From the NCBI GenBank assembly GCA_024572335.1, contig GCA_024572335.1_3052.1: a DNA stretch of 64,000 bases. One strand, 5' to 3'. The translations under genes were made by a program, and so were the position numbers. Origin of the DNA: a phage. The notes beneath the pieces are model-generated. The model was not told the origin of the DNA, made no database searches, and was given only the letters and a program-made list of their open reading frames with translations. The first letter of the stretch is position 1; each line of letters begins with the position of its first letter. This document shows, piece by piece, positions 30-46,666 of the stretch.

Positions 30-449
30 TTATGCTAAAGCTGCTTCGCACCATTTTTTAATTTGGAATTCAGGAACTACCATGAACTGGCCTGCAAAAA
101 CAATATTGTAGAGCTTGACACCATCTTCTACCCAACGGTCCGAAATAAAACCAGCGACTTGATTCGTTGTCCATGGAGTTCCATCTGTTGCCGCCGCAAT
201 TGTGAATTTATGGTCTTTTACAACTAAAACTGAAGAACAAAGTTTCCATTTAAATGCGCTTTCTTCTGGCTCAATGAACTGACTTGAGACATAACCAATG
301 TTACCATCAGCGTCACGAACTTTAACCTCGTTACGACCAAAAACTGGATCACTTACAGAAAGAACTTCAACCAGCTTTCCTGCAACTTTAGAACGAGAAG
401 CAACGGATACATATACGTAATCACCAGTAGAGAGATTTACAATATTCAT
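30..449 (-). CDS. Hypothetical early protein; member 1 of a tandem paralog trio sharing a C-terminal domain
   Basis: 139 aa ATG ORF, SD AAGGA upstream; C-terminal motif ISDRWVEDGVKLYNIVFAGQF shared with the next two ORFs. Confidence 0.6.
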   Translation of the reverse strand: MNIVNLSTGDYVYVSVASRSKVAGKLVEVLSVSDPVFGRNEVKVRDADGNIGYVSSQFIEPEESAFKWKLCSSVLVVKDHKFTIAAATDGTPWTTNQVAGFISDRWVEDGVKLYNIVFAGQFMVVPEFQIKKWCEAALA

Positions 450-14980: not shown

Positions 14981-15010
14981 ACTATACCATAGTCTTGTCA
15001 GCTTGTAAAC
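14981..15010 (-). promoter_or_regulatory. Early promoter upstream of dmd
   Basis: GTTTAC overlapping gene 41 stop, 17 nt, GTATAGT; SD GAGGAG. Confidence 0.55.
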
Positions 15011-16437
15011 TAAAATTTTAATTCATTCGCCAAAGCATCTAACTGAGCTCGAGCTGATTCATTTCTTTGATAGCGATTTTGCTCAGCCTGAATCTGTTGT
15101 GAACCTGCTACTTCGTTCACTTCGGTTGGAGTAGAATCTTGTTCAATTTCTACCCATTTCTGATTTCCTTTTTGAACACCCATCAAAAACTTATTCCACT
15201 TATTCTTATCGCCATATCGTGATTTGATTTGCTTAATGAGTTGTTGTTCAGCAGCTGCTAGCTCCTCGGTTTCAATGACCGCAAGCATAAAATCAGCTGT
15301 TGCTGGAAGACCAGCAGATTCTGCAATATCGCTCATGTTAACATCGGAAGAGTCCCAAGCTTGTTTACCAACCTGTGCTGCAGTCCAAAGAACGGTTTCG
15401 GTTTCAACAGCCAGAGCACGTAATTCCTCTGCAATAGCTTTAACAGTTGTGTAACTATTTTCTGAATAAACTCTAATGCGGCAAGATTTACAAATACCTA
15501 GATAGTCGACAATAATGATTGTTGGAACAAAATTCTTTTTGAGCTTCAATTCATTCAAGAGAGACCTGAATGTATTAGCGTCTGCTCCACCAGTAGGATA
15601 TTGTTTAACGATTAAACGACCGAGAGTAGATTTCTCACGCCATTTTTCCATTTTTCCTTTATACTCAGCGTAAGAAATATGCCCATCATCAATGTCATCA
15701 AGAGAAACATCAAGCATATTAGCATCAATACGCTTAGCACAGACTTCTTCTGCCATTTCCATGGAGATATAAAGAACGTTATGACCAAGCTGCAAATAAT
15801 CTGCTGCTAATGAACAAAGTCCTAATGATTTACCAACGTTAACACCAGCCATTAAAACGTTCAGTGTTCCAGTCTCAGCTCCGCCTTTAGTAATTTTGTT
15901 TAGAATTCTGAGTTTAAATGGAACCTTACGAGCTTTATTCATATAAGATAGCCAACGTGCTTCGTAGTCATCCATCCAATCATGACCAACGTAGCTATCA
16001 AATGAAATTGATAATGCTTGACGCATGATGTCAGGAATAGCACCAACATCCGGCATTTTCTTATTTCGTTTTTCCGGAGGAAGCTCAGCATTAGTTTGAA
16101 TTTCGATTATTTTAGACGTAGCATTAAACATTGCTCGTTGCTGAACATATTTTTCAGTTTCTTTTACTAACCAACTGTGATCTTCTGGAGAATCAACTAG
16201 TTTTGAAATAAGTGTTTTTACACCAGAATATTCTGTTTCAGTAAATGAACTATTTTCTAATGCAACAATTAACGCATTAATAGATGGAACGCTATGGTAC
16301 TCATTAACATGAGATTTAATTAATTTGAATGTATTTTTAGCTGGACCACTTTCAAAATATTCTGAATCCATATATGGCCAAACTTTTGAAAAATAAGCTT
16401 GATCAAATATGAGATGAGAAAGAATAATTTCTACCAC
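15010..16437 (-). CDS. 41: Replicative DNA helicase gp41 (DnaB family)
   Basis: 475 aa; Walker A GVNVGKS; GTG start with strong SD TAAGGAG. Confidence 0.9.
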   Translation of the reverse strand: MVEIILSHLIFDQAYFSKVWPYMDSEYFESGPAKNTFKLIKSHVNEYHSVPSINALIVALENSSFTETEYSGVKTLISKLVDSPEDHSWLVKETEKYVQQRAMFNATSKIIEIQTNAELPPEKRNKKMPDVGAIPDIMRQALSISFDSYVGHDWMDDYEARWLSYMNKARKVPFKLRILNKITKGGAETGTLNVLMAGVNVGKSLGLCSLAADYLQLGHNVLYISMEMAEEVCAKRIDANMLDVSLDDIDDGHISYAEYKGKMEKWREKSTLGRLIVKQYPTGGADANTFRSLLNELKLKKNFVPTIIIVDYLGICKSCRIRVYSENSYTTVKAIAEELRALAVETETVLWTAAQVGKQAWDSSDVNMSDIAESAGLPATADFMLAVIETEELAAAEQQLIKQIKSRYGDKNKWNKFLMGVQKGNQKWVEIEQDSTPTEVNEVAGSQQIQAEQNRYQRNESARAQLDALANELKF

Positions 16438-16446
16438 ACTTACTCC

Positions 16447-16791
16447 TTAAAAGAATTTAAATTTTTTCTTTGACCTTTTATTAAATGCATCTTGTAGTTG
16501 CATTGTAATACATTTTTCTACATGAGGAGCTAACTCAGCTTTTCTTTCTTGGTCAAGAACAGCAAAGTCCATTACAACCTTTCCATCAACCCAATCTAAT
16601 TTTGTCACATACACAATGTGTGTAGAACCATCTTCTAGTTTAATGACAATCTCCTGGATAACATTTTCCATGGCAGATTTAATTATCTTAAGAGATTCAT
16701 TAAAAAGACGTTCTTTTCTTTTTTCTTCCCCCTCCGAAGAGGGGGATTCATCTATAATTTCTAGATCTAAGTCTAAATCATCTTTATTCAT
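16447..16791 (-). CDS. 40: gp40-position protein (head vertex assembly factor in T4)
   Basis: Track ORF has GTG start at 16809; ATG at 16791 overlaps uvsX stop; size about 114-120 aa. Confidence 0.55.
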   Translation of the reverse strand: MNKDDLDLDLEIIDESPSSEGEEKRKERLFNESLKIIKSAMENVIQEIVIKLEDGSTHIVYVTKLDWVDGKVVMDFAVLDQERKAELAPHVEKCITMQLQDAFNKRSKKKFKFF

Positions 16792-17965
16792 TAAATTCTT
16801 CCATACCACTTAACTGCTCGAGGTCAGTTTCTAAATCAGCAGCTGATTTACTTTTACTTTCTGGAGATTTAAATTTTTCAACCTTTGAGTTAATCAATTC
16901 ATCAACTTCAGCTTCAACAATTTCATTACTATCAATAGCACCTAACTGATAAGCACGTTTAATAGCATCTCGGAATGGTTGATGCTTAAATAAAGGACCC
17001 CAGAATGTAGTGCAGTTGGTATCTTTTGCACGCCAAGATTTTTCTTCGCGAATCATCTCGCCGGTTTCTTCGTCAAGAAATTCACGCGCATACCAGCCAT
17101 TTTTAGGTTTTACTACAAATCCTAATTCTAGAGCCATATCTAACAATCCAGAATAAGGATCGATACCACCGTCAAATTTAACATCAATAAAGAATTTACT
17201 TTTTTCTTTAACGGTACGAGATTTTTCTACATTTAGAACAAATTGATATCCCTGAAGATCAGAACCATCTTTAATCTGACGTTTACCGATAATGAATACA
17301 GTATCAGCCGAATACATTACGCCTGTACCGCCTGTCATCACGGTTTTACTAAACATTTCAATTGTTTCAATTGTATGGTTAACCGCAACACATGGAATAT
17401 TTTTAATGCTAAAGTAAGGAGTAACAATACGGAATAATGACTTCAGTGATTTAGCACGAGTCATATCTGCCACAGATTTTTCATTCAAGGCATCTTCCGT
17501 TTCTTTCTTAGAAGCCATATTACCAATTGAGTCGATGAATACAATAACCTTTTCACCACGCTCAATAGCTTCAAGCTGGTTCACCATATCAATTTTCAGC
17601 TGTTCAACTGACTGGATTGGTGTATGAATTACTCGTTCCGGGTCAACTCCCATAGATCGCAAATAAGCTGGAGTGATACCAAATTCGCTATCATAGAATA
17701 GACAAACCGCGTCAGGATATTTGTTCAAATATGCCGCAACCATAGTCAAAGACATATTTGATTTAAAGTGTTTAGAAGGCCCTGCGAAAATAGTTAAACC
17801 AGACTGCATGCCGCCATCAATCGCACCAGAAATAGCAATATTAAGCATTGGGATTTTTGTACGGATTACATCCTTTTCATTAAAGAATTTAGATGTAGTC
17901 AGTTCAGCAGTCATTTTAGAAGTTGAAGCTTTAATCAAACGGGATTTTAAATCTGCAATAGACAT
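16784..17965 (-). CDS. uvsX: Recombinase UvsX (RecA/Rad51 family)
   Basis: 393 aa; Walker A GPSKHFKS; highly similar but not identical to recalled T4 UvsX. Confidence 0.9.
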   Translation of the reverse strand: MSIADLKSRLIKASTSKMTAELTTSKFFNEKDVIRTKIPMLNIAISGAIDGGMQSGLTIFAGPSKHFKSNMSLTMVAAYLNKYPDAVCLFYDSEFGITPAYLRSMGVDPERVIHTPIQSVEQLKIDMVNQLEAIERGEKVIVFIDSIGNMASKKETEDALNEKSVADMTRAKSLKSLFRIVTPYFSIKNIPCVAVNHTIETIEMFSKTVMTGGTGVMYSADTVFIIGKRQIKDGSDLQGYQFVLNVEKSRTVKEKSKFFIDVKFDGGIDPYSGLLDMALELGFVVKPKNGWYAREFLDEETGEMIREEKSWRAKDTNCTTFWGPLFKHQPFRDAIKRAYQLGAIDSNEIVEAEVDELINSKVEKFKSPESKSKSAADLETDLEQLSGMEEFNE

Positions 17966-18042: not shown

Positions 18043-18885
18043 TTAATCAACTGCTATCGGATGAATAGCATTAAACTTATGAAATGCTTCTGATTTTTCT
18101 TTGCGCGAAACACACATGCGAAGAACCTTTAATGGCTCGTCTTCTTCACCCAACGATTTTCGTTTTTCAATATTAGAAGTTTTCCAACGAGCTTGCTCTG
18201 GAAACTCTCTATTGATTTGCTCAAGCGCTCTATTATGTTTAGAATTACTACGAATTGAACTGCACCCGCCAGGAGCTTGTGCTTTTCCAGATACAACCAG
18301 ATATTTGAACAAGGCCAAATGCGGATAACCTTGATTAATTAAATTGAGAAATGCATACATATCTTCGCACAAATCAATTTTTCCATACCCAATTTGTTCT
18401 GTAGTAAGTTTTCCGAGGTCATACCATGTATTCGTGAATCCATATGAATTTTCACGATAATTACCCCAAGATGAAGTAATTTTAAAAATAGGTAGACGAG
18501 CATGACCGTGATAATACCCACAATCCATGGCATCTTCGACGTATTGAATCAATTCATAGAACTGTTCACGGGTTAATTGATTGACTTTATCCACACAACG
18601 ACGGTCATCTCTTTTTCGCATTGAACTCATACGAATAGTAGTATCATCGTCAATCATCCAGATTCGTTGACCTGCATACATATCAGTAATTGCTTTACGA
18701 GTACCGGCAATTCCGTTTACATCATCAGGAATAGTTATAATTTTAGCTCTAGACCCATAGGCATCATAATAAGCTTTTTCTTCATGTTCACGCACTACAA
18801 TATGGGGTTCATAATCAGTCGGAAACATATCAAGGGCAGAAACTGCCCCGACACGCTGATAACTTGGAATTACGAATTGAATCAT
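18043..18885 (-). CDS. GT-A fold glycosyltransferase at the beta-gt locus (not T4 Bgt)
   Basis: About 280 aa; GT2-like N-terminus FVIPSYQR and DxD-type motif IWMIDDDTTI; sits between uvsX and gene 42 where T4 has bgt. Confidence 0.6.
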   Translation of the reverse strand: MIQFVIPSYQRVGAVSALDMFPTDYEPHIVVREHEEKAYYDAYGSRAKIITIPDDVNGIAGTRKAITDMYAGQRIWMIDDDTTIRMSSMRKRDDRRCVDKVNQLTREQFYELIQYVEDAMDCGYYHGHARLPIFKITSSWGNYRENSYGFTNTWYDLGKLTTEQIGYGKIDLCEDMYAFLNLINQGYPHLALFKYLVVSGKAQAPGGCSSIRSNSKHNRALEQINREFPEQARWKTSNIEKRKSLGEEDEPLKVLRMCVSRKEKSEAFHKFNAIHPIAVD

Positions 18886-19622
18886 TTCCACTCACCTTTA
18901 TAGTCTTTTTTCACAATATGAGTTTCGCCAGTATTCCACCAATGATCAACCAAGTAAAAATGACGAGAATATACATGAAGACTTCCGACATTCCATATAA
19001 TAGAACCTGCTTTATACTGACGAGTTGAATCGCCGGCATTCAAATCAGATACTAATTTATCTAATACGTATTTTTGCCATGCATAATCATTACGGAATCC
19101 GAAGACCACGTCATTTGAGCGCATGCTTACTACTGCATTGACTTTCTTATCACGAATCAGGTACTGTACTGTATTAGTACACATGAAATCTGACATACCA
19201 TCTTTATTGTAGTCAAATTGCATGGATGGACGAGTATAAATCATAATACCACGTCGAGAATCAGGGTTTTGACCAAGTTCAGCTAAACACATATCATACT
19301 GGGCGTAGTTATCTTCTGACCAAATAGCCCAACCGTAATTCGAATTAATTTCGCCTTTAGAAGATGCGACCTGCTGCCAAATCTTTGGTGTTTCACCTGG
19401 AATATCTTTAACAAACAAGCTCTTAGATTTATACCATTCAAGTTCACGCTGAATGTATTCATCATTAAGAGCGCCAAAAATAAACGGTTCATCTGCTACA
19501 AATGATGTGCCAATAATTTCAATAGTTTTAACACCAGTTTTATCAACTACGAAATCTTTTTCTTTTAATGCAAGCCCCAAATGAAGACGGATTTCTTCAA
19601 CTGTCATAGAGTCACTAATCAT
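18882..19622 (-). CDS. 42: dCMP hydroxymethylase gp42
   Basis: 246 aa, size and position as T4 gp42; thymidylate-synthase-like fold. Confidence 0.85.
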   Translation of the reverse strand: MISDSMTVEEIRLHLGLALKEKDFVVDKTGVKTIEIIGTSFVADEPFIFGALNDEYIQRELEWYKSKSLFVKDIPGETPKIWQQVASSKGEINSNYGWAIWSEDNYAQYDMCLAELGQNPDSRRGIMIYTRPSMQFDYNKDGMSDFMCTNTVQYLIRDKKVNAVVSMRSNDVVFGFRNDYAWQKYVLDKLVSDLNAGDSTRQYKAGSIIWNVGSLHVYSRHFYLVDHWWNTGETHIVKKDYKGEWK

Positions 19623-35572: not shown

Positions 35573-36043
35573 TTAATCATGTTTCCACACCCCATCGGTA
35601 TTTGACCAAAGTCGCTGATTATCTGATCCTCGCCACAGCTTTTTGGTCGGAAGATTTTTCTCATACTTCCCATCAATAATAACATCAACATATTTAAGCA
35701 TTTCTAGTTGTTTAATATCTTCAAACTTATATCCTGTCCACAACCAAATGCTTTTATTGGGATAAAGATTTTTAACTGTTTGAACGATGCAATGAATCAC
35801 GTCTCTGTTATCAGGATAAAGAGGGTCACCTCCGGTTATAGTTAATCCTTCTATATAATCATTATTCAAACATTCAATTAATTGTTCTAGTGTTTCACCA
35901 GTGAATGGAATACCATTTCTAGCATTCCATGTTGATTTATTATAACACCCTTCACATTTATGCAAACAACCTGTAACGAAAAGAACGGTCCTGCAGCCAG
36001 GACCATTAACAAAATCGCAAGGATAAAATCTATCATAATTCAT
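35573..36043 (-). CDS. nrdG: Anaerobic ribonucleotide reductase activating protein NrdG (radical SAM)
   Basis: 156 aa; CxxxCxxC cluster motif GCLHKCEGC. Confidence 0.85.
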   Translation of the reverse strand: MNYDRFYPCDFVNGPGCRTVLFVTGCLHKCEGCYNKSTWNARNGIPFTGETLEQLIECLNNDYIEGLTITGGDPLYPDNRDVIHCIVQTVKNLYPNKSIWLWTGYKFEDIKQLEMLKYVDVIIDGKYEKNLPTKKLWRGSDNQRLWSNTDGVWKHD

Positions 36044-46648: not shown

Positions 46649-46666
46649 GGGAGCCCGAAGGCTCCC
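46649..46666 (-). terminator. Intrinsic terminator after the nucleotidyltransferase-like gene
   Basis: GGGAGCC-UUCG-GGCUCCC followed by U6. Confidence 0.8.

Follow-up and report, generated by a model that had tools for sequence, protein, structure and literature searches.

The 64-kb stretch of DNA analysed here (the window) belongs to a T4-type phage of the genus Tequatrovirus (34% G+C) and carries, within the first codons of gene 40, a short G/C-rich hairpin with a UUCG loop that is a genuine RNA-level element under nucleotide-level selection. The feature is already known, since it very likely corresponds to the stem-loop described upstream of gene 41 in T4; the window thus offers the rediscovery of a documented T4 element, to which the comparative picture drawn here is a useful addition rather than a new kind of system. 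We consider it probable that this hairpin defines the 3' end of the uvsX transcript, most likely as a barrier to 3' exonucleases, and in this way uncouples the expression of uvsX from that of genes 40 and 41.

Structure and genomic context of the gene 40 hairpin

A 701-nt query around the hairpin matched 669 phage records, with Escherichia phage JLBYU31 as the best match (99.4%), and T4T is 97.7% identical to the window over the 701 nt. The features of the locus are the following.

16784..17965, minus strand: uvsX (RecA-like recombinase), from the ORF list and the annotation of the T4/T4T homologue; stop codon TAA at 16786..16784
16447..16791, minus strand: gene 40 (head vertex assembly chaperone, 114 aa), from the ORF list and the T4 annotation; ATG at 16791..16789
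15010..16437, minus strand: gene 41 (replicative helicase, GTG start), from the ORF list and the T4 annotation
16727..16746, minus strand: RNA hairpin in gene 40, with 5' arm 16746..16739 UCCCCCUC, loop 16738..16735 UUCG and 3' arm 16734..16727 GAGGGGGA
16708..16726, minus strand: purine-rich tail AGAAAAAAGAAAAGAACGU directly 3' of the hairpin, without a U-tract

The gene 40 ATG and the end of uvsX overlap as ATGAATAA. The ORF lister gives GTG 16809 as an upstream in-frame alternative start of gene 40, the ATG at 16791 being the start according to the T4 annotation. On the plus strand, positions 16727..16746 read T CCCCCTC CGAA GAGGGGG A, and the minus-strand mRNA reads U-CCCCCUC-UUCG-GAGGGGG-A from 16746 to 16727, so composed that U 16746 and A 16727 flank the arms CCCCCUC (16745-16739) and GAGGGGG (16734-16728). 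The initial annotation had described a GC stem with a UUCG loop, about 45 nt into the gene and lacking a U-run, and all of this was confirmed: RNAfold recovered the hairpin in both 111-nt and 358-nt contexts, with seven G/C-rich pairs plus one flanking U-A pair, eight pairs altogether; it begins 46 nt past the gene 40 ATG and 37 nt past the uvsX stop; and the tail that follows, AGAAAAAAGAAAAG, contains no U-run. The nearest-neighbour prediction for its energy is −16.7 kcal/mol in a 26-nt segment.

The UUCG loop, at 16738..16735 on the minus strand, is closed by a C-G pair (C16739 with G16734) and carried by seven further stem pairs, which corresponds to the C(UUCG)G, or UNCG, class. The loop, the C-G closing pair and the G/C-rich stem are shared with the extra-stable C(UUCG)G hairpins of T4 mRNA (Tuerk et al. 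1988, PNAS 85:1364), a classic T4 hairpin class (commentary PMC4371310). Whereas the other CUUCGG hairpins of the window lie mostly just past stop codons and have U-rich tails, the one in gene 40 is located within a coding sequence and is followed by purines. With intrinsic terminators it shares a G/C-rich stem-loop shortly past the stop of the upstream gene, but it differs from them by its translated location and by the missing U-rich tract 3' of the stem, and a terminator scan did not call it.

The hairpin encodes codons 16-21 of gene 40, Ser-Pro-Ser-Ser-Glu-Gly (SPSSEG). In gp40 the Pfam domain PF11113 spans residues 44-99 only, and these codons fall outside it, in an N-terminal acidic extension. 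An (Asp-Leu) repeat at the gene 40 start varies among Tequatrovirus isolates by a 6-nt indel (TTAGAY), in the region of window positions 16766..16771, which moves the hairpin by two codons relative to the gene start while leaving the hairpin itself untouched.

The late-promoter sequence TATAAATA was not found near gene 40 or uvsX, and a scan with promoter consensus sequences gave no relevant promoter at the hairpin locus. An Rfam scan of 16300..17100 with E values up to 10 returned sub-threshold chance matches only, with no family for the hairpin, and neither GenBank K03113 nor the T4 RefSeq record annotates an RNA feature at its position. The record LR990704.1 of phage NR1 carries at 219..240 a 'terminator' placed exactly on the hairpin, on the strand antisense to gene 40; this is probably an automated software prediction.

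Three specific assignments were considered and rejected. A RegB site, prompted by GGAG in the 3' arm, does not agree with the GGAAGG of Mosigvirus nor with the lack of GGAG in other genera. No slippery heptamer was seen by eye upstream of the hairpin, which led us to discard a programmed frameshift. Cleavage by RNase III was dismissed since an 8-bp stem is too short for this enzyme.

Upstream of uvsX, T4 carries segA and a 351-aa beta-glucosyltransferase, neither of which occurs at that position in the window. Directly between gene 42 and uvsX, the window contains instead a 282-aa ORF (18043..18891) with a TET-associated glycosyltransferase (TAGT) domain.

Stability and codon choice

Local hairpins were ranked by a 26-nt sliding fold along both strands of the window. 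On the coding strand, the gene 40 hairpin ranks third in stability and first among hairpins located within ORFs. The native strand contains five hairpins at or below −16 kcal/mol, versus none in any of 20 dinucleotide shuffles of the 64-kb strand.

The codons that build the stem are rare ones. TCC is used for 3.9% of Ser and CCC for 1.7% of Pro, and TCG, GAG and GGG account for 5.9%, 17.9% and 5.9% of their respective families, so that the joint probability of this codon string given the peptide SPSSEG is 1.5e-7. When gene 40 was resampled synonymously, none of 1000 sequences reached the native energy, the mean being −6.3 kcal/mol and the best value −13.7 kcal/mol. The shuffles, the codon rarity and the synonymous resampling together uphold the proposal of an unusually stable element in an AT-rich ORF.

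Other hairpins of the window

The tetraloop motif CTTCGG occurs in 25 copies in the window against 12.2 expected, an approximately twofold enrichment, and only one of 100 shuffles reaches 25. Sixteen of the copies are on the minus (coding) strand, and several belong to C(UUCG)G terminator hairpins lying 8-14 nt past ORF ends, for example at 46657, 25310, 23363, 59890 and 30020. The two strongest hairpins of the window, at ~62001 and ~61446 on the minus strand, are near-identical copies about 555 nt apart (GCCCCAGCC-GAAA-GGUUGGGGC and GCCCUAGCC-GAAA-GGUUGGGGC), each followed by a U-run, with energies of −20.6 and −18.3 kcal/mol; the pair has the appearance of a repeated terminator module.

Two further hairpins are located inside ORFs. 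On the minus strand at ~35982..36007 (centre 35995), about 48 nt into an nrdG-like ORF (156 aa, 35573..36043) and 45 nt past the stop of an overlapping 605-aa nrdD-like ORF, a 10-pair fold with a GGUCCUG/CAGGACC core, AUGGUCCUGG-CUGC-AGGACCGU, has an energy of −15.7 kcal/mol, encodes VNGPGCRTVLF and is followed by UCUUUUCG. As with the gene 40 hairpin, the structure sits within coding sequence, and it resembles an intrinsic terminator. The other, terminator-like GGGGCAG-UUU-CUGCCCU with a U-rich tail (18833..18849, minus strand), lies 44 nt into the 282-aa TAGT glycosyltransferase ORF mentioned above and 41 nt past the end of the gene 42-like ORF, which we take to be the counterpart of the T4 dCMP hydroxymethylase gene.

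Conservation among close relatives

The 20 nt of the hairpin are identical in about 21 Tequatrovirus sequences (the window, T4, T4T, NR1, IME340, HY01, FL33, phiD1, five IMG/VR contigs and eight metagenomic contigs) while flanking sites vary. Taken within Tequatrovirus only, this conservation is statistically uninformative, as the expectation over 20 nt is about 1.5 changes, against none seen, and flanking polymorphisms are few. Mosigvirus, about 80% identical in this region, shows as sole stem changes CCC>CCU and GAG>GAA, both synonymous and jointly compensatory, as they replace a C-G pair by U-A. The comparison of synonymous sites that the initial annotation had suggested therefore came out in favour of the element, the stem being disrupted in none of the ~21 close relatives and the Mosigvirus changes preserving it.

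The contig IMGVR_UViG_2974573174_000001 lacks one base in the 5'-arm C-run (ACCCCTCTCAGGAGGGGG), which breaks its gene 40 frame upstream of the match. The short C-run may be a homopolymer sequencing error.

A fixed position across Tevenvirinae

Loci containing uvsX, gene 40 and gene 41 were gathered from many genera by means of a 7-sequence gp40 alignment (a 14-sequence gp40 alignment had no conserved block), and all local hairpins were ranked at each locus. In every Tevenvirinae lineage examined, namely Tequatro-, Mosig-, Karam-, Gelderland-, Jiaoda-, Gapriver-, Kanagawa- and Dhakavirus, kv_tblp8 and the IMG/VR loci L055, L058 and L064, the loop of the top-ranked hairpin in the 1.3-2.7 kb locus is placed 44-72 nt from the uvsX stop, and these top-ranked hairpins fall within N-terminal codons of gene 40. 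Their stems and loops are as follows.

Karamvirus / Gelderlandvirus: CCCCCUC – UCAG, UAAG or UUCG – GAGGGGG
Jiaodavirus: UCUCCCUC – GGAA – GAGGGAGA
kv_tblp8: CUCCCCUU – GAAG – AAGGGGAG
Gaprivervirus: GGAGGGAGC – UAAG – GCUCCUUCU
Kanagawavirus: GAGGGCC – CUAGU – GGCCCUC
Dhakavirus: GAGGGUC – CUAGU – GACCCUC
L055: GGAAUCCUC – UGAU – GAGGAUUCC
L058: GAGUCCUC – AAAC – GAGGACUC
L064: GAGGGUCA – CUA – UGACCCUC

A further stem among relatives is CCCCUUC/GAAGGGG. The tetraloop is not the conserved feature, given that other genera carry UCAG, UAAG, GGAA, GAAG, CUAGU, UGAU or AAAC in its place. Several genera have the purine arm where others have the pyrimidine arm and vice versa, and the peptide turns from PS-x-EG into EG-xx-PS, or into EESSDEDS; across the lineages the encoded peptides include SPSSEG, TPSQEG, AEGAKAPS, EEGPSDPR, EEGHYDPL and EESSDEDS. 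Since MAFFT matched the purine arms together when given bare hairpins, leaving the arm-swapped genera out of register, the count of paired changes was limited to ten in-register sequences, among which five of the eight pairs have changed on both sides and the inner pairs are never broken. The hairpin of each locus was chosen by folding and the percentage of pairing is hence partly a matter of construction; the independent evidence resides in position and rank. With the position fixed while sequence, arm orientation and peptide vary, the RNA structure itself emerges as the selected feature.

The stems of Tequatro-, Mosig-, Karam-, Jiaoda- and Gaprivervirus have no U-tract behind them. The tail of the Dhakavirus hairpin, GUUAUUAU, is moderately U-rich, which suggests that termination may be ancestral and partly retained.

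In more distant phages the hairpin is found outside gene 40. The gp40 proteins of Ac42, RB43 and AP1 have no N-terminal extension. PspYZU05, Ac42 and RB43 have non-overlapping uvsX and gene 40, and their most stable hairpin lies between the two genes, the loop being about 16 nt away from the uvsX stop. For PspYZU05 and for Ac42 it takes the form of a canonical terminator, a CUUCGG hairpin with a U-run after it. AP1 carries its hairpin in the spacer just before gene 40, the upstream gene there not being uvsX. In the Acinetobacter phages AbTZA1, DP45 and W16, a CUUCGG stem right after the gene 40 stop, in the spacer between genes 40 and 41, outranks all other hairpins of the locus, and no comparably strong hairpin was detected before gene 40 or in its first codons. 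Taking the embedded placements of Tevenvirinae together with the intergenic and post-gene-40 ones, a strong hairpin always separates uvsX from gene 41. Its retention outside gene 40 in these relatives indicates that its conserved partner is the distal end of uvsX, or the boundary between uvsX and gene 41, and not the gene 40 frame.

Probable correspondence to the T4 stem-loop upstream of gene 41

T4 and T4T share with the window the identical 20 nt, the gene order uvsX-40-41 and the offset from the gene 40 ATG. A study of T4 by the Hinton laboratory (Kim et al. 2025, PMC12152347) uses the 358 nt upstream of gene 41 (the '41 5'UR') as a reporter leader and, citing Hinton 1989, places an RNA 3' end detected in vivo directly behind a stem-loop of that region (−358 to −1, spanning gene 40). 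It reports that more RNA ends at the site upstream of gene 41 in rho mutant (nusD) hosts, that GoF(D25Y) restores RNA extension into gene 41, and that RNA with the 358-nt leader has a longer half-life under GoF(D25Y). The level of gene 41 mRNA depends on RNA extending beyond the site, according to PMC12152347 and PMC2988021.

Apart from the gene 40 hairpin, this 358-nt stretch contains no strong stem-loop, and the next-best hairpins in 2.7 kb (−9.5 and −8.9 kcal/mol) are both within gene 41. From this singularity we infer that the published stem-loop is very likely the gene 40 hairpin, and the purine-rich tail at 16708..16726 would then be the position of the T4 in vivo RNA 3' end. Compared with the T4 stem-loop of Hinton 1989 (J Biol Chem 264:14432, 14440) and Kim et al. 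2025, hairpin, gene order and offset are the same, with no difference detectable at the hairpin itself and a few flanking synonymous differences; the window is a different Tequatrovirus isolate. A literature search for a Term-seq data set or 3'-end map of T4 found none, and a literal search of the literature with the sequence returned nothing relevant.

Proposed function at the uvsX-41 boundary

The arrangement recalls a known class of regulatory structures. Intercistronic stem-loops that stabilise mRNA block 3' exonucleases and set differential expression within operons, as do the REP elements of malE-malF and the puf hairpins of Rhodobacter. The uvsX locus offers a stable stem-loop just distal to uvsX, at a position conserved in Tevenvirinae. 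With such stabilisers the gene 40 hairpin shares a stable stem-loop distal to a highly expressed cistron, 3' ends at its base and lower downstream expression; it differs from them in being a single short stem within the downstream coding sequence, and the stabilisation of uvsX mRNA is putative.

We propose that transcripts from upstream promoters would either run on into genes 40 and 41 or stop just past the hairpin. Following cleavage, or release of the downstream 40-41 RNA by Rho, 3'-to-5' decay would run back and halt at the C(UUCG)G stem, leaving a protected uvsX message, and the abundant UvsX recombinase would thereby be uncoupled from the low-level gp40 and helicase gp41. Pausing or weak termination at the stem may contribute. 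An origin of the 3' end in exonuclease arrest rather than in termination is favoured by the lack of a U-tract in the T4-type stems, by the action of GoF(D25Y) on RNA half-life and by the nuclease-sensitivity model for nusD; for T4 delayed-early RNA a nuclease-protection model has been put forward, according to which the nusD phenotype reflects nuclease sensitivity of transcripts rather than extra termination (PMC2988021). The benefit would be a differential expression of uvsX versus gene 41. Against the exonuclease barrier speak the intergenic versions in distant phages, which resemble true terminators, and ribosomes translating gene 40 would melt the stem, limiting when it can act. Among the roles that the initial annotation had listed, stability element or processing site fits best, while a translational pause finds no specific support.

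The main alternative, which we hold to be possible although rather unlikely, is an attenuator, where the nascent hairpin would make RNA polymerase pause or partly terminate, either unaided or assisted by Rho, NusA or a phage factor, and the 3' end would be a primary termination product. The canonical CUUCGG hairpins with U-run at the equivalent positions of PspYZU05 and Ac42 point in this direction, as do most other strong coding-strand hairpins of the window, which are post-ORF terminators of similar style, the U-rich tail of Dhakavirus, and the response to rho alleles of the amount of RNA ending at the site (PMC12152347). Nevertheless, the stem is devoid of a U-tract in the five genera named above, the nusD Rho proteins are not simply stronger terminators, and growth is rescued by Rop, which is not an antiterminator, as well as by extra mutant Rho (PMC2988021); moreover, the effect of GoF(D25Y) on this region is post-transcriptional, with a longer RNA half-life (PMC12152347). 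The initial view that the hairpin is unlikely to terminate is thus right in so far as it is not a canonical intrinsic terminator, but it was too strong, considering the U-run carried by the equivalents in distant relatives. An uncoupling of UvsX from low-level gp40 and gp41 would result under either the exonuclease barrier or the attenuator.

We regard as very improbable that the hairpin acts on translation, slowing or pausing ribosomes about 12 codons into gene 40 or limiting uvsX-coupled translation in order to tune gp40 synthesis or its co-translational membrane association. Ribosomes can be slowed by stable stem-loops, and this one is located in a coding sequence, 46 nt from a start that overlaps the uvsX stop. 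However, ribosomes readily unwind an 8-bp stem, the hairpin is equally kept outside gene 40, either before it (PspYZU05, Ac42, RB43) or after it (Acinetobacter phages), and the upstream sequence (AUU AUA GAU GAA UCC CCC) shows by eye no slippery heptamer, the frame being unbroken.

Least credible of all, and close to dismissal, is the absence of any RNA function, with the inverted repeat as a by-product of a conserved Pro-Ser...Glu-Gly peptide or a DNA-level feature (cruciform, protein-binding palindrome): the peptide PS(S/Q/K/E)EG does recur in several genera and a DNA palindrome is inherently present on both strands, yet the stem uses the rarest available codons and is never regained by synonymous resampling, it is kept with peptides as different as AEGAKAPS, EEGPSDPR, EEGHYDPL and EESSDEDS, the part of gp40 concerned is not covered by the conserved Pfam domain and is missing in distant gp40 proteins, SP18 and the locus L051 contain G-U wobble pairs, which pair only in RNA of this strand, and no T4 replication origin is known to map to this position.

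Implications for T4-type phages

Depending on their orientation, the arms of the hairpin are translated as Pro-Ser...Glu-Gly or as Glu-Gly...Pro-Ser. We tentatively suggest, with somewhat less than even confidence, that in Tevenvirinae the acidic N-terminal extension of gp40 derives from the terminator region of uvsX, which the gene 40 frame has taken in, and that its codons would now be dictated by the RNA structure and not by the function of the protein. T-even phages may more generally tend to place post-cistronic hairpins in the first 30-70 nt of the next, overlapping gene, the hairpins in the nrdG-like ORF past the nrdD-like ORF (about 35995) and in the glycosyltransferase ORF past gene 42 (about 18841) being further candidates in the window. 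The gene 40 hairpin is a compact example of RNA structure constraining protein sequence.

The stems found across genera may help as natural variants with which to address the effects of GoF, Rho and exonucleases. Overall, the hairpin appears to mark the site at which T4-type phages set the share of the uvsX transcript that is extended into gene 41, the essential helicase gene, and to underlie the long-standing rho(nusD)/goF phenotype.
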